Assembly (NCBI GenBank): GCA_031267915.1
Contig: JAIRYE010000006.1
Span: 8,333-72,332 of the forward strand
DNA: 64,000 bases
From: Puniceicoccales bacterium
GTDB taxonomy: Bacteria; Verrucomicrobiota; Verrucomicrobiia; Opitutales; JAIRKQ01
Reading direction: 5' to 3'
Shown here: positions 36,557 through 63,365 of the stretch, piece after piece
Numbering within the stretch: position 1 is the stretch's first letter
Layout of the letters: each line of letters starts with the position of its first letter
The notes under the pieces: generated by a model
Database searches by the model: none
The model's input: the letters and a program-made list of their open reading frames with translations, nothing else
Told to the model about the DNA's origin: nothing
Made by a program: the position numbers and the translations under genes

Positions 36557-37102
36557 TTAATTTTTACCAACCAATACAAGAGAGGGCAGGGAAATATTTT
36601 GAAAATATTTTTGCAAATTTTGAATGAGCATGGCGGTTGCAAGTGCATCGAATAGCGCACAGTGAAATTTTCTTTGCCACGGAAGGCAATATTTCTCCGA
36701 GAATTTTACTAATTCGGAATGCAATTCGAAGGCAAAAATTAGATCCTCCAGTTCGTAGGATTTCAAATTTTTGAATAGCTCTCTGTGGATAACTTTTGTG
36801 TCCACCCAGGGTCCCCAGGAAAGAGTTGTTGTTTCATCTGTGAATACCGGAACTTGTCCCGGAGATGCCCAGTAGTGGCGCAAGAGCCCATCTTCAATCT
36901 GTGCAGAGTGAGCTGCAAATAACCCAGTTCTGCGTAGATTGAGAAAATATTCCAGGTGGTCATTGAAAGTGTTTTGGCAGATCTCAGTGTGGGTGGAAAT
37001 TATTTCAAAATTTTGCAGCGTTACCACTCCGAATTCGGAAATCCCTAGGTTTTTGTTCCCCTCGAAATCGATGACATGGCAGATGCTCATTTTACACCTC
37101 AC
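36557..37102 (-). CDS. DEDDh 3'-5' exonuclease family protein
   Basis: ExoI VIDFEG, AAH, WVDT, ExoIII HCALFDA. Confidence 0.8.
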   Translation of the reverse strand: MRCKMSICHVIDFEGNKNLGISEFGVVTLQNFEIISTHTEICQNTFNDHLEYFLNLRRTGLFAAHSAQIEDGLLRHYWASPGQVPVFTDETTTLSWGPWVDTKVIHRELFKNLKSYELEDLIFAFELHSELVKFSEKYCLPWQRKFHCALFDALATAMLIQNLQKYFQNISLPSLVLVGKN

Positions 37103-38184
37103 ATGGCCGTTCGGAATAATCTTGCCACTGGCAATAGCATCAGTACACCTGGTCCCCAGGCAGCAATTGCTGGAGAAAGGGCTCCGCCGCTTCCCAGTGT
37201 GGCGAAAATTGTTTCGACGGAAAAGAATAGCACTAAAAGCCCCAGCGCCTTAACCAGAGTTCCAAATTGCTCAATTCTGGTCCCAATTGTGGCGAATGAG
37301 ATTGCAAAAAATAAAATAATCAGGCAGTTGGCGGCATTGGCAAATGTTTTGTGAATTTTTACTCTAAATCCATTGACCACACCTCCTTTGCCACCGTATT
37401 TTAAGAGATTTACGGTCTCAGGGAATGACAAATTATTTCTTTTTTTCACGGAAGCTATCATTGTTCTTGGATCTTCCGTCAGCAATGGGAAATCTTTTTC
37501 GGCAAATGATTCAGATTTTATCGCCACTCCGGTTAATGGATCCAGGGTTGTCACGTTGCAATTTGTAAAGTGCCAACATTTTTCAGTGGGGGAAAAATTA
37601 GCGAGCGTTGCGAAGATTCGTAGCTTTTCCCTATTCTCTTCGTCGCAGCAAATGACAGTTATTTCTTTCCCAATGCAGGACAACTTGTCAAGTCTCTGGA
37701 AAAACCATATTCTGTTGTCCAAATGATTATAGAAGCCAATTTTACTCTCCTCGGTGTTATACCCTGCTCGGGCGTCAATTTGAATTCTAAATGCCGTCGT
37801 GTAGTCGATTGCCATTGGGACGAGCAGCGCTTCAGCAATTAAATTCAGCACAGCCAGAATTATTCCCCCGGCGATGATGGGTTTCGCTATTGTCAAAATA
37901 TTCATGCCGGAGCATTTCATAGCTGTGATTTCATTTCTCTTGTGCAGTTGTCCAAGGACAAATAGTGTGGCCACAAACATGGCAATTGGGGTGACCAGTG
38001 CGTGGAACGAAGTTGCCAAAACCGCGTAGTATTTCACTACTTCCACCAGAGAGGCCTTCGCTTTCAGGCAGTAGGCAAAATTTTTATACACATCCTCCAG
38101 TAGCAGCAAACATGTTATCACCAGGTGTGAGCACAGCAGTGCGGAGAACCATTCGCGCAGCACGTATCGATTCAATAGCCTCAT
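37099..38184 (-). CDS. LptF/LptG family LPS export permease
   Basis: MRLLNRYVLRE, L...NEITAMKCSG, C-terminal LSPAIAAW.P; 3+3 TM layout. Confidence 0.9.
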   Translation of the reverse strand: MRLLNRYVLREWFSALLCSHLVITCLLLLEDVYKNFAYCLKAKASLVEVVKYYAVLATSFHALVTPIAMFVATLFVLGQLHKRNEITAMKCSGMNILTIAKPIIAGGIILAVLNLIAEALLVPMAIDYTTAFRIQIDARAGYNTEESKIGFYNHLDNRIWFFQRLDKLSCIGKEITVICCDEENREKLRIFATLANFSPTEKCWHFTNCNVTTLDPLTGVAIKSESFAEKDFPLLTEDPRTMIASVKKRNNLSFPETVNLLKYGGKGGVVNGFRVKIHKTFANAANCLIILFFAISFATIGTRIEQFGTLVKALGLLVLFFSVETIFATLGSGGALSPAIAAWGPGVLMLLPVARLFRTAM

Positions 38185-38804: not shown

Positions 38805-39293
38805 TCAGGCACTTAGCACTCCAAAATCAGGCGTTGAAACTCCTGTATCCTCAGTTATCCTAATTCCTCCGCCCTGCTGCAATTTTGGATATTCCGATGC
38901 CCAGTACTCAACCGCATTGACAAAATCTTCCATGCGTTCGTATAGTCGCTCTTCGTCAAACATTGCAATGGGAACAATTTCTTTTATTATTATGGTGTCC
39001 GCGTCGTCCCCATCGGCTGCCTGTAGAAGCAGTCTAGATCCTGCCGTACCGGCCCAAAAAAAATTATCTTCCAATAATTTTTTATAGGCTTCCAGCGAAT
39101 TTTTTTCGAGATCTCCAATGGTGGACGTTAGGATAAACTCATCCTTTACTTCGTCAAATATGCACGTCACGTGAAATTTTTGATCAAAGAGTAAATAAGT
39201 TTCATTTTTTTCATTAAGTTTCAATGACTCTAACTTTAACCTCGACGCGAGATTACTTAATGCATCATCAACTTTTGTTCTGCTACCGCTCAT
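38805..39293 (-). CDS. CesT/Tir-family (class I) type III secretion chaperone
   Basis: 162 aa, acidic; pattern L.L..LKLNE....L.FD, LLEDNFFWAGTAG.RL.L, and C-terminal amphipathic helix LYERMEDFVNAVEYW typical of CesT-like chaperones. Confidence 0.8.
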   Translation of the reverse strand: MSGSRTKVDDALSNLASRLKLESLKLNEKNETYLLFDQKFHVTCIFDEVKDEFILTSTIGDLEKNSLEAYKKLLEDNFFWAGTAGSRLLLQAADGDDADTIIIKEIVPIAMFDEERLYERMEDFVNAVEYWASEYPKLQQGGGIRITEDTGVSTPDFGVLSA

Positions 39294-39315
39294 ATTAATC
39301 CTTAGAATGTTGGGT

Positions 39316-39343
39316 ATGCTAAAAAATTTTTGTAAAAAAGCAA
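39316..39343 (-). promoter_or_regulatory. Putative promoter of the CesT-like chaperone gene
   Basis: TTGCTT (39343-39338)-N16-TAGCAT (39321-39316), upstream A tract, AAGGA SD 5 nt before the ATG. Confidence 0.55.
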
Positions 39344-39358
39344 GCTTTCTATTTTTTT

Positions 39359-39697
39359 TTAGAGTAATCCGAGTTGCATTTTCCCTTCAGCCGTCATCAT
39401 GTCAATGTTCCAGGGAGGATCAAAAACAAACCTTACTTCAGCTTTGGAACATTTTCCAGTATTTGTGATCGCAAATTTTATTTCATCGGCTATTTCATCC
39501 GCGAGGGGGCAGGCTGGAGATGTTAGTGTCATTTCAATGCCTACTTCAAATTTTCCGTTGGCGTAATTTTGCAGATCCACTGCATAAATCATGCCCAAAT
39601 CGACGACATTGACGCCGATTTCAGGATCTTGGACGCTTTTCAGAACATCCCAGAAATATTCTGTCATGCAGGAAATATTGTCACTGGAATTTGTCAT
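39359..39697 (-). CDS. DUF59/SufT-like Fe-S cluster assembly protein
   Basis: VQDPEIGVNVVDLGMIY, MTLTSPACP, FDPPW. Confidence 0.92.
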   Translation of the reverse strand: MTNSSDNISCMTEYFWDVLKSVQDPEIGVNVVDLGMIYAVDLQNYANGKFEVGIEMTLTSPACPLADEIADEIKFAITNTGKCSKAEVRFVFDPPWNIDMMTAEGKMQLGLL

Positions 39698-49962: not shown

Positions 49963-50634
49963 ATGCAAAATTTTATAACCATTGCGGTGGATGGTGCGGC
50001 GGCCTCGGGAAAGACGTCAACATCTTTGCTGATAGCGAATAGGTACAATTTCCTGCTGGTGTCAACGGGGACGCACTACCGGGCATTTGCGCTGAAATTG
50101 AAGCAGGCCAGCGTGAGCAGCGGCGATACCGGGGGTATAGGTAATTTTCTGCGGAGCGTTGTCCTTGGAACGGAGGTCGATGGGAATGTTTCGGGGATTA
50201 CCATAGGCGGTGAAGATTTTGCCGGAGAAGATTTGCGCACCCGGGAGATAAATGAAGCAGTCGCTCAATATTCAGCCGTTGATAGCATCCGTAAATCTTT
50301 ATTTGTTTACCAAAGGTCGCAGATAGAAGTTGCACGGGAGCACGGATTTGGAGGTGTGATCATGGAAGGGCGTGACATAACCAGCGTGGTTCTACCGGAT
50401 GCGGATCTGAAGTTTTTTTTGGAAGCAAGCGCCGGCGAGCGTTCCCTCCGGAGAAAGAATGACAGGGAAAGCGATTTCATAGGCAAGCGGGACAAAATCG
50501 ATGGCGGGAGAATCGTTTGTGGCGCAGATGTTTTTAGGATTAATACGGGAACAAACGGGCTGAATGCTGTTGCCGCAATAATTTCTGAGAAAATCGACAA
50601 AATTCTACGGAAAGAAAATTCCTTCCGCCTATAG
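49963..50634 (+). CDS. cmk: Cytidylate kinase
   Basis: IAVDGAAASGKT, TG.HYRA, MEGRDITSVVLPDADLKFFL. Start placed at MQNF. Confidence 0.9.
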   Translation: MQNFITIAVDGAAASGKTSTSLLIANRYNFLLVSTGTHYRAFALKLKQASVSSGDTGGIGNFLRSVVLGTEVDGNVSGITIGGEDFAGEDLRTREINEAVAQYSAVDSIRKSLFVYQRSQIEVAREHGFGGVIMEGRDITSVVLPDADLKFFLEASAGERSLRRKNDRESDFIGKRDKIDGGRIVCGADVFRINTGTNGLNAVAAIISEKIDKILRKENSFRL

Positions 50635-51033
50635 GGTTAGGATAAAAATTCCCGAAATTATTACATTCCAAAGGGCAATATAAACCGCTGCACTGGCCGT
50701 GTCTTTTGCTTTTTTCGCCAGGGGAAATTTTTTGTTTTGAGCCGCAAAATTTACAATCGATTCGATTGCCGTGTTTAGACATTCTGCTATCAGCAGCAGG
50801 AAAAAATCGATAACCAGCAGTAAAAATTTCCAAGTCCAACCGAGGAACCAGAAACATATTGGCAGAACCACTATCCCGCAAACCAGCTCTACCCGGAACG
50901 GTCGCTCGTGCCTCATAAATCGCATGCCACTTATGGAATAGCTCAGAGGATTGACGACGTATCTCCAGAAAAAAATAACAAAAAGTCTAAAAAATTTTCT
51001 GCAAAATTTCCTTTGCACGCCTATAACTTTCAT
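50629..51033 (-). CDS. dgkA: Diacylglycerol kinase (DgkA family)
   Basis: HERPFRVE, ECLNTAIESIV, AKKAKDTASAAV; 3 TM. Start uncertain. Confidence 0.88.
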   Translation of the reverse strand: MKVIGVQRKFCRKFFRLFVIFFWRYVVNPLSYSISGMRFMRHERPFRVELVCGIVVLPICFWFLGWTWKFLLLVIDFFLLLIAECLNTAIESIVNFAAQNKKFPLAKKAKDTASAAVYIALWNVIISGIFILTL

Positions 51034-51068
51034 TAGTCCTTCCCCGAAGGTTAGAGTAGCAAATACCC

Positions 51069-53024
51069 ATGGAGCGAGAAAGACAAAGGAAGCAAAAAAG
51101 ACAAGAGCAAAATTATTGGAAGACACTTTTCCTCAAATTTGGACTGCTGCTTGCTATTTTTTCCGTCGCTCGTCTTTTGTTTTTCTTTTGCAACTGCAAA
51201 TTTTTCCAGGACGAAAGTCTCCGTAATATTATGCTGGCTTTCGCCGTTGGCCTAAGATTTGATCTGGCGATTATTGCAATTCTCAATGCCCCGATTTGGA
51301 TTTTTTGGACTTTGCCGCTCAGGTTTCGCTCCTGGAAAATTCCAAATATTCTGGCGGAAACCTGGTTCGTTGCATTTAATTTTTTGGCACTGATTGCGAA
51401 CGTCATAGATGCGAAATATTTTTCCTTCACATTCAGGCGTATGGGAGGTGAAATATTTAGCCAAGGGGTGATGCTGACGGAGGATTTTTACATATATTTA
51501 AACGTGCTGGCGCGCTACTGGTATGTCGCAGTGGTTGGGATGCTGCTGACGTGCGCGCTTTGCATGTGTCCGCGCAGACTTAGTTTTATTGGGAAATCCG
51601 ACAGAATCGAAGTGCGCGATTTTGGATATTTTTTTGCGGCGGTGGTACTTTTGATAATTTGTGTTCGCGGAGGATTTCAAAGGAAGCCTCTGAAGCCGGT
51701 GGATTCAAACATTTATGCGCCAACCCTGCAGATGGCTAGCCTGGTAAACAACACGGCATTTAATATTTTTCACACAAGGAAAAATGCAAGCCTGCCGCAG
51801 ATGAAGTATTTTGGTGTTGGAGACACTCGACTGGCAAAATTTTCGCCCAGACATGGAAGTGGAAATTTCTGTGATTCCTGCGAAGATTTTAGAGGGAAGA
51901 ATGTGTTCATAATAATTTTAGAAAGCTTTTCGGCGGAACACGTAGGTGCGCTTGACAGGCAATTCAAGGATAACAGGGACATTCCTTTTACCCCGTTTTT
52001 AGATTCGCTGCTGAAAAAAAGCTACGCTTTCGACGGTTTTGCGAATGGGGTAGTGTCCATAGACGCTTTGACTTCAATTACACTGGGGATCCCATGTCTC
52101 TTCGGATCGCCCTACATAACAAGTGCCTATGCGGAGAACGCAATGGTTCCTCTTCCGGCAATTTTGAGAAAGGATGGATACAAAACAATGTTTTTCTACG
52201 GCGGAAAAAGCAACTCATGCCACTTCAATAGCCTGAGAGTCAAGGCGCAAATTGAAGAATACTACTGCGAATATGACTACGATGGTCCGGAATCTGACAC
52301 GAAGGGGTGGGGTGTCTACGATGAGAAATTTTTTCAGTTTGTTGCGAGAAAGGTCAACGCATCGGAAAAGCCGTTCCTGGCGATCCTGTTCACGCTGTCG
52401 TCCCATCATCCGTATTTGTATCCGCAGGAGTTGCACGGCAAATTTCCAAAGGGCAGCGGGTCTGAGCCTCTGGAAGAACTTATTGCCTACACGGATTATT
52501 CGCTGCGAAAATTTTTTGAAACTGCGGAAAAGATGGACTGGTACAAAAATACCATATTCGTTCTTGTTGCGGATCACATAGCCGGCCCCCAGCAAAGGTA
52601 TTACAAAAACACTCTGGGCGGATATTCCATTCCGCTGATGTTTTTCGACCCCAATGGGAAACTGGTCGGGAAATCGGAAGAAGTTGCTCAGCAGATAGAT
52701 ATTATGCCTTCTCTTTTGGATCTAGTTGGGAGCAAACACAATTATTTTTCCTTCGGTTCAAGCCTATTTAATGGAGATGCCCCACGGTTTTCCATCAGCT
52801 ACAATAATGGAATTTATCAGATTATAACGAAGAAATTTGTTTGCAGATTTAATGGTGAACGTGTATCGGAATTGTACGAAAGGGAAGATTTTTTCCTGGA
52901 GAAAAATCTGGTGTCAGATCCGGTCTACGCTAGCCAAGTTGAAGATCTGGGAAATTTCATGAAAGCATTTTTGCAGCAATACAGTGAAAGCATCAGAAGC
53001 AATGACATGCTTACTGCGGATTAG
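51069..53024 (+). CDS. LTA synthase/OpgB-like sulfatase-fold membrane protein
   Basis: Five N-terminal TM (GLRFDL, RGGFQ..P), NVFIIILESFS, TPFLDSL, TLSSHHPY, VADH, QQIDIMPS. Confidence 0.88.
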   Translation: MERERQRKQKRQEQNYWKTLFLKFGLLLAIFSVARLLFFFCNCKFFQDESLRNIMLAFAVGLRFDLAIIAILNAPIWIFWTLPLRFRSWKIPNILAETWFVAFNFLALIANVIDAKYFSFTFRRMGGEIFSQGVMLTEDFYIYLNVLARYWYVAVVGMLLTCALCMCPRRLSFIGKSDRIEVRDFGYFFAAVVLLIICVRGGFQRKPLKPVDSNIYAPTLQMASLVNNTAFNIFHTRKNASLPQMKYFGVGDTRLAKFSPRHGSGNFCDSCEDFRGKNVFIIILESFSAEHVGALDRQFKDNRDIPFTPFLDSLLKKSYAFDGFANGVVSIDALTSITLGIPCLFGSPYITSAYAENAMVPLPAILRKDGYKTMFFYGGKSNSCHFNSLRVKAQIEEYYCEYDYDGPESDTKGWGVYDEKFFQFVARKVNASEKPFLAILFTLSSHHPYLYPQELHGKFPKGSGSEPLEELIAYTDYSLRKFFETAEKMDWYKNTIFVLVADHIAGPQQRYYKNTLGGYSIPLMFFDPNGKLVGKSEEVAQQIDIMPSLLDLVGSKHNYFSFGSSLFNGDAPRFSISYNNGIYQIITKKFVCRFNGERVSELYEREDFFLEKNLVSDPVYASQVEDLGNFMKAFLQQYSESIRSNDMLTAD

Positions 53025-53440
53025 AGCAAAGACACATGAAATGCGAAGATGCTGCGGCTGAGGGGAAAATTTTACTCTTTGCCGGCGAACATTTTCACCT
53101 AATTAAATCGGGAGTGTTGCGGAGAAAACTGTGTGGTGTTTTAAAATTTTTCATTTTCATTTCACGATTGCTTCCGCTGTGCTTAGCAACAAGCCATTGG
53201 ATATTTCCGCAAATGCAGTGATGGATGCAATTTTGAATGTTTGCTTTCCGATGATGGGCTAGCAATTTTTACCGCGATTGACGGAATTATAATTTTTATT
53301 TGGCGACTTTCTTTGCGATTACGGTTTCAGGTGCGCCGATAATCTTTTGTTTGAAACTGGCTTCCGCAACGCCTCCGTACGCAACAGGGCGTGCTAGACG
53401 GTTGCGTGGTGGAAATTTTTTAATGCGTGAAGTGCTTGTT

Positions 53441-53977
53441 TTACTGTTCGCCTGCTTTTATGCTCTGCCGAACAAAGATAGACTTGTCGATTTTTTCAAA
53501 AAAGCGAATGTAAAACTTGGAGTCCATTAGGGCATAGCTACTTTCATTGGCACCACCGAATTCATTGAAAGTCTTTTTGTTGGTGACAAAGCTTACGCGT
53601 ATTGACACTCTGTTATTCCCGAGTTCCTCCACGTGGGCGGTTCCGGTATCCCAGGTTGATTCGGAATTGGGTGCGCTTAAAAGCAACGAATCTTGAAATC
53701 TGAGCCGATGAGATTCGTTTGATGTGATGCTGCTTTTCGCTATGACCAGCCCCATCGCCGAATCCGATGTTTGAATGATGAATCCCAGGTCCTGAAAGAC
53801 ATCTATGACAGCCGCAAAAGCAATTTTATAGGAGCAATAGAATTCGCGGGTTTGCATTGTTTGAATGTCAATGCTGGTGCGTGGTGTTCCCCCCTCCGAA
53901 GAGTCATCCAGCAGAAGGCATCCTCCGCAAATGCATGCGGACATGAATAGTGATGAAACAAAAAATATTCTCAGCAT
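53441..53977 (-). CDS. Putative lipoprotein
   Basis: Lipobox-like ICGGC; MQTREF, VFQDLGFII, FY..FF.KIDKSIF. Confidence 0.75.
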   Translation of the reverse strand: MLRIFFVSSLFMSACICGGCLLLDDSSEGGTPRTSIDIQTMQTREFYCSYKIAFAAVIDVFQDLGFIIQTSDSAMGLVIAKSSITSNESHRLRFQDSLLLSAPNSESTWDTGTAHVEELGNNRVSIRVSFVTNKKTFNEFGGANESSYALMDSKFYIRFFEKIDKSIFVRQSIKAGEQ

Positions 53978-53989
53978 ATAAAACAGTGG

Positions 53990-54400
53990 TTAAAACGACG
54001 TTGTTCTATAGGAAAAATCAGACACCCTTGCGTCCAAGTCAAAGTGGATGACTATTGTCAGTGTGCGCTCCTCCGACGATCCTGTCCTCCTCGCCGAATG
54101 CGTACCAAAAATTATAAGATTAAGTCCCCCATCGGATGCCCGTGTTTCGTATTCCGAGTGAATTTTGTCGTATACCCAAGTTTCGCAGCCTTCAGCATTT
54201 TTGGTGACCATATTTGGAGAGCCAAGGGCTTCAATGACCTCATAGGAATACATTCCCTTTTTTACGAATCGTTGAACGGTTCCGATTGTCACTTGATCGG
54301 GGGGAGAGGCATAGGTATAGTTGTGGGGTTGCTCTGTTTCGCAGCCCGATATAAAAAATACAAGACTTGCAAATAGAAAAATTCTTATAAACGGCTTCAC
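53990..54400 (-). CDS. Putative lipoprotein, BamE/SmpA-like fold
   Basis: Lipobox ISGC; KKGM...EVIEALGSPN...ETWVY; TLTIVIHFD. Confidence 0.75.
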   Translation of the reverse strand: MKPFIRIFLFASLVFFISGCETEQPHNYTYASPPDQVTIGTVQRFVKKGMYSYEVIEALGSPNMVTKNAEGCETWVYDKIHSEYETRASDGGLNLIIFGTHSARRTGSSEERTLTIVIHFDLDARVSDFSYRTTSF

Positions 54401-54597
54401 ACCAATATCACTAGCGATTTATTAATTTTGTCAAGAAATCGTTCTGGGAAAAATTGTGAGTTTTGCTGAACTTGGGTTGCGGAGTGAATTTTTGGATTTC
54501 AGGGGCAGTGTTTTACAATTTTGCTATAAACTGGAAAAGCTTAAAAAATTATTGCTTATTTTGATTTTTAAAACAAGTTCTCGAAAATCAAGGTTCT

Positions 54598-55767
54598 ATG
54601 GAAGAGTTAAGCGGTAATGTTTTGATTTTACAGATGGGAAAAGCATCGGCTATCACAAATGCAATATTGGGTGCGCTGGTCAAAAAAGCATTGAACTATG
54701 ACTGCATAGGAGAAATTTACGGTTGCGTTGGCGGAATTCAGGGTTTGCTGAGTGGGCAATTTATTGATTTGGCAGAACAGCACCAAAAAAATATATCCAA
54801 CCTCACTGGAACTCCGGGAGCAGCGCTGAAGACAGTAGTTTACGATGAAATTGAATTCGGAAAGCTTGTGGAAATTTTACAAAAGTACAACGTCCGCTTC
54901 CTGTTCATCATAGGAGATAGTTCCGTTGCCGGTAAGTGTGCCGAATTGAGTAACTTCATAAAGAGATCCAATTACGAAATGCGCCTGATGCTGATTCCGA
55001 CTTCCTCGGACAACGCCACGCAGTTGACGGATCATTGCCTGGGATATGGTTCAATGGCAAAGCATTTGGCAGTGACAGCAAAGAGCGTTATTACCAATGT
55101 GCAATCGAAACAGCCGAATGGAGCCATAACTATACTTGAACTGAAAGGGTGCAGCAGTGAGTGGCTAATTGCTTCCCTATCTCTCATGCGGTCGCGAAAG
55201 GACAGCGGCGCTGCTCCGCATTTAATAATTCTTTCAAAATTCGATGAGGGCACTTTCGTGAAGAATATACACAAGTCGATAAAAAGCATCGGGCACTGCG
55301 TAATCGCCATAGGGGATAAGCTGACTGACGCAAGGGGAGAAAATTTGGCCGTCCAGCACAGAGCAGCGGAACACATAGAATTTATTGCCAGGGCAAATTT
55401 CGGGGTTCAAGTGGATTTGATAGCTCTGAGTGACTGGGAGCTCACATCGTGCATGACGCTATCCGAAACTGACGTCACTGAGTCGGAATTGTGTGCGCAA
55501 AAAGCACTGGAGCTTGCCGTTGCCAGTGGAATCAGTGGAAAAATGATCACGCTTCTGCGCGCCGATGAAAACAAGTACTCTTCGGAGGTGAATTGCGTGG
55601 ATTTTGAAAACATTTCAGCCAATGTTAAAGAATTTCCTGAGTCCTGGTATGACTACGAAAGCATGTCACTTGACGCCGCATTTTTCAGATACGCAGCGCC
55701 GCTGATTCTGGGGGAAGTAAAGTATGTCTATGACAGTGGATTGCCAGTTTTTGCGCAATTGGTGTAG
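54598..55767 (+). CDS. Phosphofructokinase-family protein with degenerate catalytic motifs
   Basis: Overall PfkA/PPi-PFK layout (GNVLI.Q, EIYG..GGI.G, TPGAAL, TDHC.GYGS.AK, F..YA.PLI.GE), but the GGP, GGND, KTIDND and MGR motifs are altered. Confidence 0.8.
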   Translation: MEELSGNVLILQMGKASAITNAILGALVKKALNYDCIGEIYGCVGGIQGLLSGQFIDLAEQHQKNISNLTGTPGAALKTVVYDEIEFGKLVEILQKYNVRFLFIIGDSSVAGKCAELSNFIKRSNYEMRLMLIPTSSDNATQLTDHCLGYGSMAKHLAVTAKSVITNVQSKQPNGAITILELKGCSSEWLIASLSLMRSRKDSGAAPHLIILSKFDEGTFVKNIHKSIKSIGHCVIAIGDKLTDARGENLAVQHRAAEHIEFIARANFGVQVDLIALSDWELTSCMTLSETDVTESELCAQKALELAVASGISGKMITLLRADENKYSSEVNCVDFENISANVKEFPESWYDYESMSLDAAFFRYAAPLILGEVKYVYDSGLPVFAQLV

Positions 55768-55769
55768 TG

Positions 55770-56750
55770 CTATTTGCATTTGAGAGTTTCAACGTAGGCG
55801 GCGAAGGCTATCATTGCTGCGTTGTCACCGCTGTGCTGAGGAAGAGGGCAGATGAATTTTTTGCTGAATCTTTCCGCCAGTGCGAATATCCTGCTGCGCA
55901 AGGTTTCGTTATTTGAAACGCCACCGCTAATTCCAAGACTTTTGCAGCGGGGATAGGCGGCGAGTGCATGTTCGACTTTCCTGCTGAGCATGTCGATGAT
56001 TGCTTCCTGGTAGGAGGCGCAAATATCACTGCTGTGGTGCTGAATGCTTCCGTTGAATTTTTCCAGGAAATATCGCAGGCTAGTCTTTAGCCCGGAAAAA
56101 CTAAATTTCATGTCCAATTTGCTGGGAAATGCTCTGGGGAAGTGATATTTTTTCGGATCGCCAAGTTTGGCAAACTTTTCAATCAGGGCGCCGCCGGGGT
56201 AGGGTAGGCCGAGTAATTTTGCGCCCTTATCGAATGCCTCTCCGGCTGCATCGTCCTGGGTTTCTGCGATGATTGTAAATTCAAGGCTTTCCGCTATTTC
56301 GCATAGAATTGTGTTTCCGCCGGATACCAGTAGCCCTAGAGATGGTAAAAATTCCTTCAAATTGGAATGGAAATGCTCCGGATCGCTGCCGTGAACTTGA
56401 ATAAATGGAGAAAGCAAGTGGCCGTGAAGATGATCGATTTCGACAACCGGTATGTTTAGAATTAGAGACAGTGCTCTGGCTGCGGCGAGACCTATGTTCA
56501 GACATCCCGGAAGTCCTGGCTTTGCCGTCGCTGCTATTGACTTTGCCTCAGCTGTGCCGAAGCATTTCAAATGCTCGAGTAGCGGAATGAAATTCTTTAC
56601 GTGTTCGCGGGATGCCAGATCGGGAACAACACCGCCGTATTCGCTGTGCAGTTTAATCTGCGACGCGATTTCCTCAAACACAATTCCCGATGACTCTTCG
56701 AATAAGGCGACTGCGGATTCATCGCACGAGCTTTCTATCCCAATTATCAT
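55770..56750 (-). CDS. tsaD: tRNA N6-adenosine threonylcarbamoyltransferase
   Basis: GIESSCDE, YGGVVPDLASREH, HLHGH, VSGG, DDAAGEAFDK, FSFSGLKT, DNAAMIA. Confidence 0.96.
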   Translation of the reverse strand: MIIGIESSCDESAVALFEESSGIVFEEIASQIKLHSEYGGVVPDLASREHVKNFIPLLEHLKCFGTAEAKSIAATAKPGLPGCLNIGLAAARALSLILNIPVVEIDHLHGHLLSPFIQVHGSDPEHFHSNLKEFLPSLGLLVSGGNTILCEIAESLEFTIIAETQDDAAGEAFDKGAKLLGLPYPGGALIEKFAKLGDPKKYHFPRAFPSKLDMKFSFSGLKTSLRYFLEKFNGSIQHHSSDICASYQEAIIDMLSRKVEHALAAYPRCKSLGISGGVSNNETLRSRIFALAERFSKKFICPLPQHSGDNAAMIAFAAYVETLKCK

Positions 56751-56893
56751 GAAATTTGTTAAGATCTCCCAAAAAAAATCTTGTCAGTATCGATTTTATG
56801 TGCAGCGTCCAGACTAATTGTTAATTTTACCTAAAAATCCAGGGATGCTTGGTGGCGAATGGTTCGCGGCCTTGCGGAATGGAGAAAGAGAAT

Positions 56894-57724
56894 ATGAGAA
56901 CCTCACCCCAGGAATTGTTCGAAGCCGGAGTACACATCGGGCACCAGAGAAAACGGTGGAATCCGAAGACATTGCCCTATATTTTTGATCACCGCAATGG
57001 AATAACGATCATTGATCTCGTGAAGACGTGTGAGCAGGTTGAAAAGGCGTGCGATACTGTCAAAAATGTCGTCTCCGGAGGGGGAAACATCTGGTTCATA
57101 GGCACAAAGAAACAGGCGAATGACGTTGTTAAAGAGGGTGCAATGTCTGTTGAGATGCCATTTTGCGTGAATCGCTGGGTTGGTGGCACGCTGACGAATT
57201 TTCAGACCATTGAACGCAGCTTGAACAAGTACAGAAAATTTCTAAAAATGGATGAGGCCGGTGAGATAGCAAAGATGTTCAAAAAGGAAGGTGCAGCGAT
57301 TCGCCGTGAAATGGCACGCATGCACAGTACTTTTGAGGGATTGATGCAGATCGAGGGATTGCCGGAAGCTTTGTTTGTCGTCGACGTGATGCACGAATAC
57401 ATTTCCGTTTTAGAGGCGAAGAAAATCGGCATTCCCGTGATTGCCATCGTTGACACCAATTCGGATCCGACCCTGGTGGACTATCCAATTATGTGCAATG
57501 ATGATTCGGGGAGGGCAATAAGAATGATCGTTGGATTGCTGCTTGAGGGAATTCAGGAGGGCATAGCAATTAGAGGCGAGCGCAAATCGTCAAAGAAAAA
57601 GCTGCTATCCGCAGGTGATTTGGTGCAAATTGTGCCGGAGGTTTCGATATCCCAGGAAATTGTTGATGAAATGTCGGCTGCGGCCGCTGCTCAGCGAGTT
57701 GAAACTGAAGTGGTAGAAAATTAG
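56894..57724 (+). CDS. rpsB: 30S ribosomal protein S2
   Basis: LFEAGVHIGH...WNPK, GTKKQA, RWVGGTLTN, DTNSDP, NDD. Start placed at ATG 56894 after GGAG. Confidence 0.97.
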   Translation: MRTSPQELFEAGVHIGHQRKRWNPKTLPYIFDHRNGITIIDLVKTCEQVEKACDTVKNVVSGGGNIWFIGTKKQANDVVKEGAMSVEMPFCVNRWVGGTLTNFQTIERSLNKYRKFLKMDEAGEIAKMFKKEGAAIRREMARMHSTFEGLMQIEGLPEALFVVDVMHEYISVLEAKKIGIPVIAIVDTNSDPTLVDYPIMCNDDSGRAIRMIVGLLLEGIQEGIAIRGERKSSKKKLLSAGDLVQIVPEVSISQEIVDEMSAAAAAQRVETEVVEN

Positions 57725-57736
57725 TGGGGAGGTGTT

Positions 57737-58321
57737 ATGGAAATTAGTGCAAAGATTGTAAATGAGCTGCGGCAGCGTTCGGGTGCCGGAATGATGGAAT
57801 GCAAAAAAGCTCTGGTCGAAGCCAGCGGCGACATGGAGCAGGCGATTTTAATTTTGAAGAGGAAGGGTATTTCCAATGCCGCTAAAAAAGCGGGACGTGA
57901 GGCCAGCGAAGGAGTAATTCAATCCTACATCCACAATGGTGGACGCGTGGGAGTTTTGCTGGAATTAAACTGCGAGACCGATTTTGTTGCCAAGAATGAA
58001 ATTTTTCAGCAGCTGGCGAAGGATATTTGCATGCACATTGCCGCAATGTCTCCAGCCTACGTTTCCGCCGATGAAATACCGGATGAGCTCGAGGAAAAAG
58101 AGCGGAGTATCGCCATTGAACAGTGTGCGGGGAAGCCGGAAAACGCGATTGAAAAAATCGTTGCCGGGAAAGTCGCAAAGTGGCACAGTGAAGTTTGTCT
58201 GCTGGACCAGCCTTTTATCAAAGATCAGCAGAATTCAGTTGGAACCTACATTTCACAGGCGATCGCACAGATCGGTGAAAACATCAAAGTCAGGCGCTTT
58301 ACGCGCTACCAGATCGGATAG
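57737..58321 (+). CDS. tsf: Elongation factor Ts (short form)
   Basis: [29 protein letters not shown]; GGAGG RBS. Confidence 0.97.
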
Positions 58322-58392
58322 CTCGGAAAACGTTCCGGAAGTTCCCCGGGGGGACATTTTGCGCAAAAATTTTCAGCCCAGGAGGGCGTAGA

Positions 58393-58504
58393 TTTGCGAT
58401 CAAAAAATTAGTTTTTAAAGCTGTCAGGTGGCATTCTGGAGTTTCACAGGAAGATATCCTCGATTATTTGTGGCAAAATAGCTGGAGCGCCAGTCTGCAA
58501 TTAA
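58393..58504 (+). pseudogene. pyrH: Probable 5' remnant of uridylate kinase
   Basis: Removing one T from the T5 run (58412-58416) gives FAIKKLVLKLSGGIL, matching the PyrH N-terminal (K/R)xxLKLSG motif at the position after tsf where pyrH normally lies. No start codon; stop at 58502-58504. Confidence 0.45.
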
Positions 58505-58511
58505 AATCTCA

Positions 58512-58539
58512 TTGATTTTGTAAAAATTTATGCCATATT
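58512..58539 (+). promoter_or_regulatory. Promoter of the orphan gene at 58558 (motif shared with 60781-60808)
   Basis: TTGATT-N16-CATATT with extended TG; GGAG SD follows. Confidence 0.6.
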
Positions 58540-58557
58540 TCCTGCTTGGAGATTAGT

Positions 58558-59616
58558 ATGAATATAAGAGGCGAATCGAATGAAGGTAGCACTTCAAATA
58601 ACTTTTTAAAAGAAACGGGAAAACGGATAGTGGATTACGGAAAGAAGGTAATCGCAAATGCGATAAATTTGTTTAGGTCTTCCCCCGAAGATACCTCTCT
58701 GGAAAATAGAGAGGCGGCCACCTTAGCAGACGCGGATAAAAGCAAAGAGGTTGAAGATGAAAGAGAAGATGAAGAGGCTAAAGATGAAGGAGAGGATGAA
58801 GAGACTGAAGATGAAAGAGAAGATGAAGAGGTTGATTCGGAGGAAAAACTCAAGTTTTCCAGCGATGAAAATTCCCCGAATGCCAGCGATAATGAGAACA
58901 CAGATGAAAAAGTAAAGAAATTGCTCGAAGGTCTCAGCGAAACAGAAATAAAAGAGCTAATGAAAAGATTTCTGGAAAACCAAGACCGGGAAGTCGCAGA
59001 ACAAGAGACGAGACAACAGGAGACGCAACAACAAGAGATGCAACAACAGGAGATGCGATCGGAAGCGATAAAGAGTTGCTTAAAAAAAGTAGGATTAGGA
59101 ATACTACTGCCCTATGCCCATAATATTTTGGAAAAAGGAGTAAGGAATTACATAAAAGAAAAAGGTTTCGTGGATTTATGTTTTAGCATCAATATGGAAG
59201 TGTTGCATTTCGCTCAAATATTGGCTAGTGTCGGGGTAGCAACTTGCATAACTGTGCCAGTAGTATCAGTGACTGGGTCGACAGCACTTATTATTGGTGG
59301 ACTTCTTTATAGCTCCAAATTTTTATTAGCCTTAATGGGGAAATATGAAATTAAGGGCCTTGGCACAGAGGCTAGCGACGTGATTTTGTCAACCACATTC
59401 ATAAACATGTTCAAAGACGGAAGTCAAAAACTCATAAAACTGAACGGTAAGATAATTCTAGGATTGGATATTGGTAAGGATGTGTATAATTTCTGTAAGG
59501 TTTTAAAGTTTATGCATAGCATCGGAGCAGGCGCGCCTAATCCTATTCCGACGAATAATAGTAATGCCCAGGAGGCCAATAATAATAGCAGTGATGCGAT
59601 AGGTGATAATCTCTAA
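58558..59616 (+). CDS. Orphan acidic repeat-containing membrane protein (candidate secreted effector)
   Basis: 352 aa from the ATG after GGAG; A-rich DNA; acidic and Gln repeats; 47-aa hydrophobic stretch at 59200-59340; no Sec signal. Confidence 0.8.
   Translation: MNIRGESNEGSTSNNFLKETGKRIVDYGKKVIANAINLFRSSPEDTSLENREAATLADADKSKEVEDEREDEEAKDEGEDEETEDEREDEEVDSEEKLKFSSDENSPNASDNENTDEKVKKLLEGLSETEIKELMKRFLENQDREVAEQETRQQETQQQEMQQQEMRSEAIKSCLKKVGLGILLPYAHNILEKGVRNYIKEKGFVDLCFSINMEVLHFAQILASVGVATCITVPVVSVTGSTALIIGGLLYSSKFLLALMGKYEIKGLGTEASDVILSTTFINMFKDGSQKLIKLNGKIILGLDIGKDVYNFCKVLKFMHSIGAGAPNPIPTNNSNAQEANNNSSDAIGDNL
58747..58835 (+). repeat. 27-nt coding tandem repeat x3.3 (E-x-x-D-E-x-E-D-E)
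   Basis: Units gaggttgaagatgaaagagaagatgaa / gaggctaaagatgaaggagaggatgaa / gagactgaagatgaaagagaagatgaa / gaggttga. Confidence 0.9.
59002..59058 (+). repeat. 15-nt coding tandem repeat x3.8 (QETRQ/QETQQ/QEMQQ/QEMR)
   Basis: caagagacgagacaa caggagacgcaacaa caagagatgcaacaa caggagatgcga. Confidence 0.9.
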
Positions 59617-59697
59617 TTCGCTATGAATAATGTTGAAGGTTTAATTTAGTGAAAATTTTCTTGCCAACGCAGCATTTGTTGTCACCTTGATCTGCAA

Positions 59698-60015
59698 GTG
59701 GGTTCGTTTTTTACATCTCTGTTAACCTTCATTCTGGTCTGTACGAGCATTTTTGTGGCTCTGGTTATTTTGATGCAAAGGCCTTCGGCTAATGCTGGCA
59801 TGGGGGCTGCTCTGGGAGGTGGTGCTGCAGAATCGGCCTTTGGAAGCGATACGGCAAAGGTGTTGACCAGATGGACGATTAGCGGAATTGCCACATTTTT
59901 TATCGTGGCATTTGCGCTGTCGCTGTTGCGCATTCACGAAAATTCACATGGGCAGGGGCAGCCAAGCATAAATCTTGAAGAAATCGTCGATGACGGGGAT
60001 GTTTCAGAAGAGTGA
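59698..60015 (+). CDS. secG: Preprotein translocase subunit SecG
   Basis: LVILMQRP..AGMGAALGGGAAESAFG....VLTRWT; two TM. Confidence 0.93.
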   Translation: MGSFFTSLLTFILVCTSIFVALVILMQRPSANAGMGAALGGGAAESAFGSDTAKVLTRWTISGIATFFIVAFALSLLRIHENSHGQGQPSINLEEIVDDGDVSEE

Positions 60016-60742
60016 CAGTTCTGCAGTTTGCGTGCTCCATCTAATTATTCTTTGTGCGGTGCTAGGTGGGGGTGAATTGTGTGGCAGTGAATTACAGAGA
60101 CTTCACCATCTGTCTGAAAAAAAAGCGAGGGAATTTTTGAGAAGCGCGCAGTTGGAGTCTACGCATTTCAATGCCAGGGGGGAGGTCAGTTTCGAACTGC
60201 ATAGCTGTAGGGATGTGCGCAATGAAAAAACTGGAAAAATCATCTGCACAATGGATGGAGATGAAAAATTTTTTACTGTGAATTTTGACACTGGCGGATG
60301 CGTTTTAGGCGAAAGGACGCTTCGAAACATCGGACGTGATGATTTTGCAATGGACAGGCCATTTTTTGACAATTTAATTTTTTCCCCCCGGGATCTGTTC
60401 TTCATTTTTCTAGGAAAGGATCCATATTGCTACGCAGGTCCAGCAAGAATTTCCGGCCGTTCGGTACAACAGTTTGTCCGTTTCTTTGATATTTCAATGG
60501 ATGGTGTGCCGATTTCTGCCATAAAAATTTCCATCGATGGGAAATTTTTAACGGTTTTGCGAGTGGATTTCTTTGACAGTACACAGAAGTTGGTCAGGCG
60601 AATTGCGATTGACTCATTCGAAAATTTCGACGGCCTTTGGATGCCAAAGGTAATAGAATTTTCAGACCTGAGAAAGCATTGCCGAGCAAAGCTCAAAATC
60701 ACAGGTGCAAAATTTGTTTTCGCCGAAGAAGCTGTTCGTTAA
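59975..60742 (+). CDS. Outer membrane lipoprotein-sorting (LolA-like) protein
   Basis: Beta-rich; FS..DL, C-terminal DFFD...KLVRRI...FDGLWMPK.IEF.D pattern. Start uncertain. Confidence 0.6.
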   Translation: MKKSSMTGMFQKSDSSAVCVLHLIILCAVLGGGELCGSELQRLHHLSEKKAREFLRSAQLESTHFNARGEVSFELHSCRDVRNEKTGKIICTMDGDEKFFTVNFDTGGCVLGERTLRNIGRDDFAMDRPFFDNLIFSPRDLFFIFLGKDPYCYAGPARISGRSVQQFVRFFDISMDGVPISAIKISIDGKFLTVLRVDFFDSTQKLVRRIAIDSFENFDGLWMPKVIEFSDLRKHCRAKLKITGAKFVFAEEAVR

Positions 60743-60780
60743 TCATTTTTTTGCGATTTTAAGTTTTAATTAAAAATTTG

Positions 60781-60808
60781 TTGACTTTGTAGAAATCCAT
60801 GCTACGCT
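60781..60808 (+). promoter_or_regulatory. Promoter of the orphan pair 60830-62987
   Basis: TTGACT-N16-TACGCT with extended TG; GGAGAAGG SD before ATG 60830. Confidence 0.65.
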
Positions 60809-60829
60809 TTCCACAGCGTGGGAGAAGGT

Positions 60830-61984
60830 ATGAGTTTTTGGAACCAAGCAGTGGAATTCTTATTCGGAAAGGGTCCGAGTGCGACAAAATCGGATGATAA
60901 ACAGAAATACATCGTCAAAAATGATACGGGGAGATTTAATGCTAGTCGGCATACTGAAACAACATCCCTTAATACCAGAAGTTTGAACAGCACACCCCGA
61001 AGATCCCTCACTCCTGACAGAGTAGGGAACGGCTCGAGCTCCACAAGCAGTAATGATCGCTATCTTTCAAACTCCTCCACCTCTAATAAAAGGAAAATTG
61101 ACTTAACACAACAGGCCTTCATTGACTTAACACAACAGGACTTAGATGATACTAAGGAATTTAATAGTGATCAATTTGTTGAAGAAGCATCCCAAAGTGC
61201 CAAAAATTTGAATAACTCGAAGAGAGACACATCCAGATCCCTTACTCCTGAAAGAAAAAGGAATGTCTCGAGCTCCACAAGCAATTATTCTCGCAACCCT
61301 CACACTAATGGAAATAGTGAACCGTGCTTCGTCATACACGGTAACAGCAACGTTATTCATATGAACTCCTATGCGAACAGCCAATCTGACGCGCCCGATG
61401 CGAACAGATCATCTGCGCAATACATTGGCTCCAACGGAAATGTGTCTGAGTCCTCTGGAAAGGAAAAGAAAAAAGGTATTGTGTCATCGATTCTGAAAAC
61501 GACACTTAACGGGACAATCGTGGTACTTAAAGGAACGCTAAATCTTGTTGGTGTAGCAGGTAGGTTTATCATGCAACACTATATTATTTCAGGGCTTGTA
61601 GCAGTCGGTGCGGTTAGTTATTTACGTGGAGGGAAAAGCGATACTGGTGGTACTTTAGGTCAGACCGTAAAGGATATTGAAAAGGATATTGAAGCCGTGT
61701 CGAAAGAGGTAACAGATAATAATACCGCCCAAGTAGTCAATTTTATTTTCAACAAATCCGGACACGCTACGGAATCCATTAAACGAATCAATGAAGCAAT
61801 ATTTAAAGCGGCCACAGACGGAAACTTGAGCGATCTGGAATATTATGCCAAATATCATCCTGGACCTGTGGGCTGGTTTACGCTAAACAACGAAAAAAAT
61901 TGCTCAAAACTCGTCTTCTCCGAGCAGTTATCTAAGGTTTATGATTCGTGTAAATTTCTTTTGGAAAATTCAAAAAAAGGGTAA
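60830..61984 (+). CDS. Orphan Ser/Asn-rich protein with eukaryote-like linear motifs (candidate effector)
   Basis: 384 aa; disordered N-terminal half with internal duplication, tandem IDLT, hydrophobic segment near 61475-61633; no Sec signal. Confidence 0.8.
   Translation: MSFWNQAVEFLFGKGPSATKSDDKQKYIVKNDTGRFNASRHTETTSLNTRSLNSTPRRSLTPDRVGNGSSSTSSNDRYLSNSSTSNKRKIDLTQQAFIDLTQQDLDDTKEFNSDQFVEEASQSAKNLNNSKRDTSRSLTPERKRNVSSSTSNYSRNPHTNGNSEPCFVIHGNSNVIHMNSYANSQSDAPDANRSSAQYIGSNGNVSESSGKEKKKGIVSSILKTTLNGTIVVLKGTLNLVGVAGRFIMQHYIISGLVAVGAVSYLRGGKSDTGGTLGQTVKDIEKDIEAVSKEVTDNNTAQVVNFIFNKSGHATESIKRINEAIFKAATDGNLSDLEYYAKYHPGPVGWFTLNNEKNCSKLVFSEQLSKVYDSCKFLLENSKKG
61001..61294 (+). repeat. 60-nt direct repeat pair (61001-61060 and 61235-61294)
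   Basis: 49/60 identical by manual alignment; both encode RSLTP(D/E)R..N.SSSTS. Confidence 0.9.
61097..61139 (+). repeat. Perfect 19-nt repeat with 24-nt period (IDLTQQ x2)
   Basis: attgacttaacacaacagg at 61097 and 61121. Confidence 0.95.
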
Positions 61985-61988
61985 AATT

Positions 61989-62987
61989 ATGTCAAAAGCC
62001 GGGGGTCTAACCGATAGTTCGTCAAAACAAGTCAATAATTTGCCAAAAAAATATAATATTACCTCTGAAGAGATGGGTAAGTTCTTGAAATCTGTTAAGG
62101 GAGATCTCAATAGAAAACCTTTTATTAGACAGATAGATACAATGTTAGCCGAAGGTAAGAAAAACCTGGACCGAAGGGTTAATTCCAAAGAATCCAGAGA
62201 TGGCAACAAGCCAAAAGATACATCCAATTCAGATGGATGGTTTAGTTTTCCAAAAATACTGATAGTCTGTGGCAGTATTTTTGGAATTTACGAAGCATTG
62301 GGATATTGCAAAAATTTCGTGACGAAAATAATGAGCTTTAATCTTTATACTGAGTACTATAAGAATCTAAATAAGGGTCTCAACGCGTACGAAAAGACCT
62401 TAGCTGAGACGAAGGACGGGTGTACGAAAAACGGAATAAATGATATAACCCTAAAAATTCGGGACGAATTTTATCCTGGCGAAAATCTCAAAGAAATAAG
62501 AGACCTTGCAGAGAAAACCAAATCTATTATGCGATGTGTTGATACTAATTGCAAAATAGAAGCAGCGATTGGTGTGCTAAATGGAGGGTATAATCTCCAG
62601 ATTAATACCACAGCAATTTCGGAAGCTAATAAAATCTATTGTAAGGAAGCAATTAACTCATTAGCTTCGGGTAATCTGAAGCTGGATATCAACAAGGACC
62701 TAGATAAAAAATATTTACGAATAACCGATCTGCTTGATGTAAAAAAGAATATCGAAACTAGTTTGAATGAATTTGTATCAGAGCATAAAATTGACGAAAA
62801 AGATCAAACATTTGTAGAAAAGCTCACAGAAGACACGATTGACGCCGCCAATGTTGTTGCCGATGGTGTTCATAAAGTCGGCGATGCTGTTAAAGCAGTG
62901 GGCCAAACGGCAACATTTTTTGGAACTGCTGCAGCATATCTGAACAACGGCCTTAAATTTCTGTTCGGCGAAGGAGTCAAAAAATAA
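61989..62987 (+). CDS. Orphan single-TM helical protein
   Basis: 332 aa; ATG 4 nt after the previous stop; AT-rich; hydrophobic FPKILIVCGSIFGIYEALGYC and Ala/Gly-rich C-terminus. Confidence 0.8.
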   Translation: MSKAGGLTDSSSKQVNNLPKKYNITSEEMGKFLKSVKGDLNRKPFIRQIDTMLAEGKKNLDRRVNSKESRDGNKPKDTSNSDGWFSFPKILIVCGSIFGIYEALGYCKNFVTKIMSFNLYTEYYKNLNKGLNAYEKTLAETKDGCTKNGINDITLKIRDEFYPGENLKEIRDLAEKTKSIMRCVDTNCKIEAAIGVLNGGYNLQINTTAISEANKIYCKEAINSLASGNLKLDINKDLDKKYLRITDLLDVKKNIETSLNEFVSEHKIDEKDQTFVEKLTEDTIDAANVVADGVHKVGDAVKAVGQTATFFGTAAAYLNNGLKFLFGEGVKK

Positions 62988-63006
62988 ACTTTTTTCCAGA
63001 AAAAAT

Positions 63007-63034
63007 TTGACAAAAGGCTAAATAGTCATAGCAG
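63007..63034 (+). promoter_or_regulatory. Putative trxA promoter
   Basis: TTGACA-N16-TAGCAG, then AAGGA SD. Confidence 0.5.
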
Positions 63035-63056
63035 GGGATTCTGAAGGATAACTTGC

Positions 63057-63365
63057 GTGAAGGCGCTCGATGCAGCAAATTTTGATGAAACACTGGAAAA
63101 GGGCGGCACCGTGGCCGTCGATTTCTGGGCTCCCTGGTGCGGGCCATGCCGTGCGCTGGCTCCTGTGATGGAACAGGTTGCGCAGGAGGTTGGCGATTCA
63201 GTCCTGGTAGCCAAGGTGAACATCGACGAAGCCCCCGAGCTCGGGGAAAGGTTCGGACTGCAGTCGATCCCGGCGATTATTTACTTTAAAAATGGGACGG
63301 AAGTCGGACGCAGCGTAGGGATGACGACGAAAACTGACGTCATTGCTGCGCTGAAGTCCCTGTGA
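63057..63365 (+). CDS. trxA: Thioredoxin
   Basis: VDFWAPWCGPC, KVNIDE, SIP. Confidence 0.96.
   Translation: MKALDAANFDETLEKGGTVAVDFWAPWCGPCRALAPVMEQVAQEVGDSVLVAKVNIDEAPELGERFGLQSIPAIIYFKNGTEVGRSVGMTTKTDVIAALKSL

Follow-up and report, generated by a model that had tools for sequence, protein, structure and literature searches.

Two described arrangements stand close to the locus reported here. In Chlamydiae the genes of the type III secretion system (T3SS) are scattered round the chromosome, and several class I chaperones, among them Spa15 and InvB and the chlamydial Slc1 and Mcsc, are multi-cargo 'orphan' chaperones. Reduced-genome Verrucomicrobia akin to protist endosymbionts are barely characterised. 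Excerpts of one report (PMC8204192) describe a cluster of Verrucomicrobia that live as endosymbionts in the nucleus or cytoplasm of protists and whose genomes do not exceed about 1 Mbp, and mention an unpublished metagenome-assembled genome (MAG) of an intranuclear verrucomicrobial symbiont of about 1 Mbp. We analysed a stretch of 64,000 nucleotides (the window) from the genome of a Puniceicoccales bacterium. The window carries the gene of a CesT-type chaperone and, 19.3 kb from it, three open reading frames (ORFs) that occur in this genome alone, called here ORFans 1-3. A first-pass annotation, made from the letters of the window, had joined the four genes into one candidate effector module. 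The reading that we prefer, to which we give about an even chance, keeps them apart: a conserved general-purpose chaperone and a set of species-specific ORFans, possibly membrane-targeted effectors, in a genome with a scattered T3SS.

The assembly that contains the window (G000; 787,468 bp in 23 contigs, 86% complete, about 45% GC, the window being G000:C22:8333-72332) represents a reduced genome of about 0.8-0.9 Mb, of Puniceicoccales type, with a Ysc-like T3SS whose genes are dispersed among housekeeping genes. The 22 other members of the family all have genomes of 0.7-1.0 Mb. A dispersed non-flagellar T3SS elsewhere in the genome was presupposed by the module, and the genome does encode one. 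SctN scored 664 bits, exceeding the 604.75-bit cut-off of the non-flagellar equivalog TIGR02546, SctV gave one match of 769 bits, and SctY reached 78.3 bits against a cut-off of 70. The parts present are SctN, V, U, S, T, J, C, K, L, O, P, W, X and Y, encoded in at least four loci (Table 1), all of which have ATP synthase, tRNA synthetase, lipid A and further housekeeping genes as neighbours. FHIPEP, Bac_export_2 and YscJ_FliF had one match apiece; a second export apparatus, of the flagellar kind, is therefore absent. Compared with solved structures, SctV matched best an LcrD-type chain (827 bits), and its cytoplasmic domain alone matched 7qij, which we take to be Yersinia YscV, at 405 bits versus 315 bits for 6wa6, presumably chlamydial CdsV; these sequence matches point to a machine of the Ysc family. 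The gene orders sctW-sycN-sctX-sctY-sctV and sctJ-K-L-N-O-P and the CesT-like gene ahead of sctC are likewise those of Ysc-family injectisomes, and the breaking up of the machine into loci amid housekeeping genes recalls the chlamydial layout. Unlike the Ysc and chlamydial systems, this one resides in a reduced verrucomicrobial genome, with sctR and sctQ missing from the assembly, a point to which we return below.

SctN above the cut-off was found in 26 of the 41 genomes of our set of relatives (G000 counted) and in 19 of the 22 other family members, where the G021 copy is cut at a contig end and G001 and G004 had no match; phylum-wide, 19 of 301 sampled genomes were positive. The Opitutales-type lineage suggested by the first-pass annotation also holds, as homologues of the chaperone are annotated 'type III secretion system chaperone [Puniceicoccales bacterium]' and the related loci come from Puniceicoccales, Opitutales and Opitutia MAGs. 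Related public records already carry these annotations for both the chaperone and the dispersed injectisome.

The chaperone gene had been recognised as CesT-type from its sequence, with a YbjN-type, non-secretion fold named as the outcome that would undo the assignment. The protein matches Pfam CesT (PF05932) with 47.5 bits (E 2.3e-12, cut-off 22) and has a mass of 18.3 kDa and an isoelectric point (pI) of 4.41, as expected of class I chaperones, which are acidic and of about 15-18 kDa. Its AlphaFold2 (AF2) model, computed from a 26-sequence alignment, has a mean predicted local distance difference test score (pLDDT) of 81.5 and the alpha-beta3-alpha-beta2-alpha topology. A Foldseek search with this model retrieved 47 PDB chains at E <= 0.001, headed by ExsC, VecA, SchA, SicP, SycN/YscB and CesT, with target-normalised template modelling (TM) scores of 0.74-0.84 to ExsC, VecA and SicP; YbjN came at rank 30. 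Family match, modelled fold, size and charge together mark this protein of 162 aa as a genuine class I T3S chaperone, with dimerisation and substrate binding predicted. It resembles the chaperones at the head of that list in all these respects and in sharing its genome with an injectisome, and it differs from them in being far better conserved than is usual, in having a C-terminal tail of 25 residues, and in adjoining no obvious effector or apparatus gene. Three 'free' CesT-family proteins, this one included, are encoded in the genome, and two more lie beside sctW and sctC.

Orthologs of the chaperone (E <= 1e-58, 59-83% identity, three genera) occur in 21 of the 22 other family genomes, and the remaining one, 76% complete, gave a match at paralogue level only. 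The alignment of 26 sequences has 54 invariant columns. Between G000 and G006, a member of the same genus, the chaperone is 75% identical, compared with 66% for hisS, 76% for proS, 78% for tsf and 52% for lptFG; as far as sequence identity tells, its conservation is comparable to that of tRNA synthetases and EF-Ts family-wide. The flanking genes are of housekeeping type (LptF/G, a GNAT acetyltransferase, a SufT-like protein, HisRS, ProRS and SerRS). From hisS to lptFG the genes are spaced by a 4-nucleotide (nt) overlap and then by 65, 15 and 5 nt. The order sufT-cesT-GNAT-lptFG is unchanged in 21 of 21 MAG family loci, which include nine family loci of a separate comparison; hisS stands ahead in 20, and one locus stops at a contig edge. 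Given this family-wide conservation in a fixed housekeeping array, the chaperone most likely serves one conserved client or several (multi-cargo), and dedicated escort of the three ORFans is unlikely. Like Spa15, InvB, Slc1 and Mcsc, it is conserved and encoded apart from effector genes, amid scattered T3SS genes; the folds of Spa15 and InvB, at ranks 42 and 29 of the Foldseek list, are less close to it than those of single-client chaperones.

The C-terminal tail of the chaperone (residues about 136-162, window positions 38808-38888, minus strand) lies outside the chaperone fold. It consists of a conserved PKLQQGGG, a variable Ser-rich linker modelled with low confidence, and a conserved hydrophobic-x-Ala end whose final Ala is invariant in the 26 sequences. 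The tail may be a docking or degradation tag.

ORFans 1-3 lie in two of the spaces between the genes of a conserved rpsB-tsf-secG-lolA-trxA array. Their ATG starts, at 58558, 60830 and 61989, each lie behind a ribosome site of the GGAGA/AGGG type, and a public gene call for ORFan 1 starts at 58558 too (352 aa). Since ORFan 3 starts 4 nt past the stop of ORFan 2, these two probably form one operon. None of the three reached a Pfam or NCBIfam family at its cut-off. The first-pass description of AT-rich, repeat-containing frames without Sec signals agrees with the GC contents, repeats and hydrophobicity that we measured. The GC contents are 0.396, 0.413 and 0.361 for ORFans 1, 2 and 3 vs 0.452 +/- 0.037 over the 618 ORFs that reach 120 aa. 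Tandem repeats occur in ORFan 1 (27 nt x3.4 and 15 nt x3.6), which has acidic E/D and QQE(T/M) repeats, and in ORFan 2 (24 nt x2). The three proteins have no hydrophobic stretch before residue 83, 204 or 229, and therefore no Sec-type signal; each begins with a long hydrophilic part that is repeat-rich or of low complexity. A bilobed hydrophobic region of 47-50 residues lies at about 213-262 in ORFan 1 (window 59194-59343), two moderately hydrophobic segments lie at about 229-265 in ORFan 2 (61514-61624), and ORFan 3 has a single segment at about 83-108 (62235-62312). A single confined hydrophobic region, by a definition drawn up after ORFans 1 and 2 had been seen, is found in 13 of the 618 ORFs, these two among them. 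The in-frame codon-usage scores of ORFans 1-3 fall at the 35th, 4.5th and 46th genome percentiles with a clear frame preference, the margins of ORFans 1 and 3 over the other frames being at the 99.5th and 97.7th percentiles; the codon usage of these two is native, and that of ORFan 2 is weaker. Judged by these sequence features, the ORFans are real, species-specific protein genes.

The orphan status given to the three frames in the first-pass annotation was borne out by wider searches. Among 40 relatives, 13 of them of the same genus, there was no credible match to any of the three, the sole match (14 bits, E 0.006) falling in an acidic repeat, and G000 itself encodes no paralogue of them. ORFan 3 had no match at E <= 0.001 among 1.84 billion representative proteins, and the C-terminal half of ORFan 1 found only itself among 5.8 billion. 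For ORFan 2 the library search reported nothing, the query included, as 8000 low-complexity candidates swamped it, which makes this a weak blank. Phmmer comparison of the ORFans with the ORFs of the relatives' loci gave nothing significant. In G006 the order tsaD-rpsB-tsf-secG-lolA-trxA-racemase is as in G000, and the gaps of 419 and 169 nt at the ORFan positions hold no leftover similarity to the ORFans. Six other genomes of the genus have different conserved genes after tsf. Together with the layout of G014, described next, these arrangements indicate that unique genes collect where otherwise conserved arrays have slots or breakpoints.

Downstream of tsf, where G000 has ORFan 1, G014 carries eight successive ORFs (94-405 aa) without a G000 homologue (L024:1630-10996), those measured having 31-39% GC. 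Another synteny breakpoint is occupied in G007, G013 and G003 (L023:1858-3570, L025:1818-3707 and L028:1801-3552) by a shared protein of 570-629 aa, not in G000, with a Ser-rich N-terminus and one hydrophobic segment near its C-terminus.

It is possible, at somewhat less than an even chance, that the ORFans are exported by the T3SS and inserted into host membranes in the manner of chlamydial Inc proteins. Like Inc proteins they lack a signal peptide and are lineage-specific, and of the Inc-type bilobed domain (about 40-60 residues, no Sec signal) ORFan 1 is a fitting example and ORFan 2, with its two segments, a borderline one. The two differ from Inc proteins in that their hydrophobic regions lie at residues 213-265, not near the N-terminus, and ORFan 3 differs in its single segment; the likeness is one of sequence features. 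The features are compatible with Inc-like exported effectors and equally with lineage-specific bacterial membrane proteins. A fuller version, which we hold only tentatively and consider rather unlikely as a whole, is that these are T3SS-delivered host-membrane effectors of a verrucomicrobial endosymbiont, functionally convergent with Inc, and that each species of the reduced-genome family would create or capture its own set of effector genes in intergenic slots or breakpoints of housekeeping arrays. The genes would be driven by ordinary strong promoters of the sigma-70 type, and their products would pass to a small number of highly conserved chaperones with multiple cargoes, that at 38805-39293 among them.

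Several observations weigh against the preferred combination of a general-purpose chaperone and possible ORFan effectors in a genome with a working T3SS. Hydrophobic regions far from the N-terminus are atypical for most Inc proteins, the segment of ORFan 3 is not bilobed, and those of ORFan 2 are weakly hydrophobic. The polar content of the 25 N-terminal residues is only mildly high (84th, 74th and 94th percentiles), the codon-usage score of ORFan 2 is poor, and the ESM Atlas models of ORFans 3 and 1 are very poor (pLDDT 0.37 and 0.43), with no ESM Atlas look-alike of either scoring >=0.9. A look-up of sequencing runs, RNA or DNA, that contain 58300-63100 listed none. On the side of the machine, SctR and SctQ had no match in the 86%-complete assembly and the best needle protein match, 19.4 bits, was under its cut-off. 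SctR was found in five of the five relatives searched, so the SctR and SctQ absences are most simply assembly gaps, and we infer an intact injectisome in G000 from these relatives.

The alternative that survives best, although we consider it unlikely, makes the ORFans ordinary lineage-specific membrane proteins of the bacterium, inserted through the signal recognition particle (SRP) and YidC and unlinked to the T3SS. Internal hydrophobic segments with no recognisable secretion signal, a promoter of housekeeping type, and the lack of an adjoining chaperone gene all accord with it. However, a strongly reducing genome rarely retains three single-species genes of 330-380 aa unless they are selected, and N-terminal halves of low complexity, acidic or Ser/Asn-rich, are unusual for proteins of the inner membrane.

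Distinctly less probable is that the ORFans are young frames, non-functional or decaying, from expanded intergenic DNA. Their lack of homologues, low GC, unfoldable predicted structures and, in ORFan 2, a weak codon score would all follow from this, but frames of 332-384 codons are very unlikely to stay open by chance in DNA of 36-41% GC, the distances to ribosome sites and promoter elements are right, and ORFans 1 and 3 have native codon usage and the high frame margins given above.

A different proposal, equally improbable in our estimate, concerns the chaperone: its true partner would be the adjoining GNAT, a secreted acetyltransferase or a regulated enzyme, in a layout like that of sicP-sptP. 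The pair adjoins in 21 of 21 family loci and is kept in a genome of another family, G025; its chaperone has only 36% identity, two bases separate the genes and the rest of the array is gone. Across the order (19 families) the GNAT was found in five of the seven with SctN versus none of the 12 without. This phyletic link failed in the phylum sample, where GNAT-like matches were found in 1 of 18 other T3SS-positive genomes versus 10 of 282 T3SS-negative ones, and in G031, G035 and G040 the two genes lie apart. The GNAT itself is a compact domain of 199 aa with a highly conserved N-terminus and no space for a chaperone-binding region; it reached no NCBIfam equivalog, and its nearest solved relatives are uncharacterised GNATs and SpeG. 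G025 has two GNAT copies, one with an N-terminal hydrophobic extension.

Slightly less probable again is the module as first proposed, with the chaperone as the specific escort of ORFans 1-3 and with all four genes united in a single regulon by a common promoter box. What speaks for it is that the four genes lie within one 24-kb stretch, that the pattern TTG.YTTT.TA.AAA stands ahead of three of them, and that the upstream elements of ORFans 1 and 2 are alike. Against it, the chaperone and the ORFans are separated by about 15 housekeeping genes, and the chaperone is older than the ORFans, being family-wide in a fixed array (21 of 22 genomes) when these have counterparts in 0 of 40 relatives. 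The adjacency and co-inheritance that mark a dedicated (class IA) pair are thus both lacking, and the module is not supported.

The promoter part of the claim stood in one half. The elements at 58499-58533 and 60768-60802 do share 27 of 35 bases, with an architecture of an A/T tract, a TTGAYT -35 and a TGc-(T/C)AnnnT extended -10, and their local alignment score of 30 compares with 15.5 +/- 3.0 for 51,681 pairs from 322 upstream regions, 4.8 standard deviations over the mean. As 77 of the 51,681 pairs score as high, the similarity is real but modest. The other half, co-regulation, is not supported. The type with a -35 and a TGn extended -10 is generic: it precedes 15 of 365 genes, pgk and secG included, and shows no enrichment ahead of genes with low GC (3 of 40 vs 12 of 325 others). 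A consensus promoter scan of the region gave 10 sites where 10.0 +/- 3.2 were expected, no excess; the two ORFan elements were not listed, and upstream of the chaperone the scan placed a different site, TTGACA-16-GAAAAT at 39405-39378. Genome-wide and on both strands, TTG.YTTT.TA.AAA has five matches (1.3 +/- 1.3, maximum 6, in 30 third-order Markov simulations). Three of the five are the sites from which the pattern was derived, so the count is circular, and neither of the other two in the whole genome stands ahead of a T3SS gene. T3SS-specific promoter motifs are known elsewhere as hrp, tts and PIP boxes; a box of this kind, common to many T3SS and effector genes and rare elsewhere, was not found genome-wide. 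From their sequences the ORFan upstream elements read as ordinary strong promoters of the sigma-70 type rather than as a regulon box.

In size, in having no signal peptide and in their central hairpins of hydrophobic residues, the ORFans resemble proteins of the YopB/YopD type, which would suggest a role as hydrophobic translocators (SctE/SctB) of the injectisome. This reading is highly improbable and was rejected, as relatives sharing the machine should have them, yet 13 same-genus genomes gave 0 matches, and no class II chaperone gene of the TPR type adjoins.

Other genes of the genome, outside the window, are more recognisable as effector candidates than the ORFans, and they raise the prior for effectors. 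A Pfam scan of the 20 ORFs with the lowest GC among those of 200 aa or more not scanned before gave no match for 12, matches to ordinary families for three and sub-threshold matches for five. P0045 has a sub-threshold match to PI3_PI4_kinase (23.4 bits) with a DRHNGN loop, and its homologues (26-48% identity) are spread over 14 of 22 relatives, a single genome having as many as seven matched pieces. In this phosphatidylinositol (PI)-kinase-like family the DRHxxN loop is invariant, as are D334, R335, H336, N339 and D351 in 14 sequences; the family profile matches the catalytic loops of mTOR and PI4KA weakly (E 0.006). AF2 modelled P0045 with a kinase fold (pLDDT 76.8), closest by TM to PI4K type II alpha (query/target 0.36/0.47), and the modelled family is a strong candidate for an expanded, fast-diverging, eukaryote-like effector family. 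P0044 contains a HELSH zinc-protease motif inside a sub-threshold match to Peptidase_M91 ('Effector protein') and has no counterpart in the five relatives searched. Searched as single sequences, neither P0044 nor P0045 matched a PDB sequence. By their sequences the P0045 family and P0044 are effector-like, fast-evolving genes and stronger candidates than the ORFans, the PI-kinase-like family foremost.

The strongest CesT paralogue of the genome, SicP-like and scoring 76 bits, lies on contig C23 (G000:C23:15-6422, L031). On its flanks lie five ORFs of very low GC (32-39%), of which the four scanned (130-366 aa) match no family. In gene content this locus looks more like a chaperone-plus-effector island than the window locus does.

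Table 1. Features of the window and, where a contig is named, of the rest of the genome. Window coordinates count from its first nucleotide.
Feature	Coordinates	Strand	Basis or remark
LptF/LptG permease, last gene of array	37099..38184	-	library scan, gene order
GNAT acetyltransferase (Acetyltransf_3), 199 aa	38190..38789	-	Pfam 102.8 bits
Class I T3S chaperone (CesT family), 162 aa	38805..39293	-	Pfam, AF2, Foldseek, size, charge
SufT-like Fe-S assembly protein (FeS_assembly_P)	39359..39697	-	library scan
hisS, first gene of array hisS-sufT-cesT-GNAT-lptFG	39694..41016	-	library scan, gene order
rpsB-tsf, conserved flank	56849..58321	+	
Upstream element of ORFan 1: A/T tract, TTGATT -35, TGc-CATATT extended -10	58499..58533	+	
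ORFan 1, 352 aa, pI 4.6	58558..59616 (open frame 58546-59616)	+	ORF list, codon usage
secG and LolA-like gene, between the orphan slots	59698..60742	+	
Upstream element of ORFan 2: TTGACT -35, TGc-TACGCT extended -10	60768..60802	+	
ORFan 2, 384 aa, pI 9.2, Ser/Asn-rich	60830..61984 (open frame 60818-61984)	+	
ORFan 3, 332 aa, pI 8.8	61989..62987 (open frame 61941-62987)	+	
trxA, conserved flank	63057..63365	+	
sctW(TyeA)-sycN-like-sctX-sctY-sctV	C9 67.9-72.8 kb		profile matches
sctC, with T3S N0 domain; weak CesT-like ORF before it	C9 123.6-125.9 kb		
sctS-T-U	C9 141.9-144.0 kb		
sctJ-K-L-N-O-P	C15 13.6-18.5 kb		
P0045, PI-kinase-like, 471 aa, low GC	G000:C5:4091-5506	-	outside window; relatives' loci L089-L108
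P0044, 382 aa, low GC	G000:C19:11232-12380	-	outside window; L078

No paper that connects these lineages with type III secretion came up in full-text literature searches. The chaperone-ORFan module as proposed adds little by itself. The family is of wider interest: genomes of 0.7-1.0 Mb with a scattered Ysc-like injectisome would make it a second lineage of the Planctomycetes-Verrucomicrobia-Chlamydiae (PVC) group, beside Chlamydiae, built round host manipulation by type III secretion. It pairs conserved chaperones with candidate effectors that are fast-evolving or unique to a species, which makes it a tractable comparison for the origin of effector repertoires under genome reduction.

Elsewhere in the window, two small ORFs that match no family (53441-53977 and 53990-54400, both on the minus strand) have N-terminal hydrophobic leaders of lipoprotein-like appearance, the second with a Cys after the leader.

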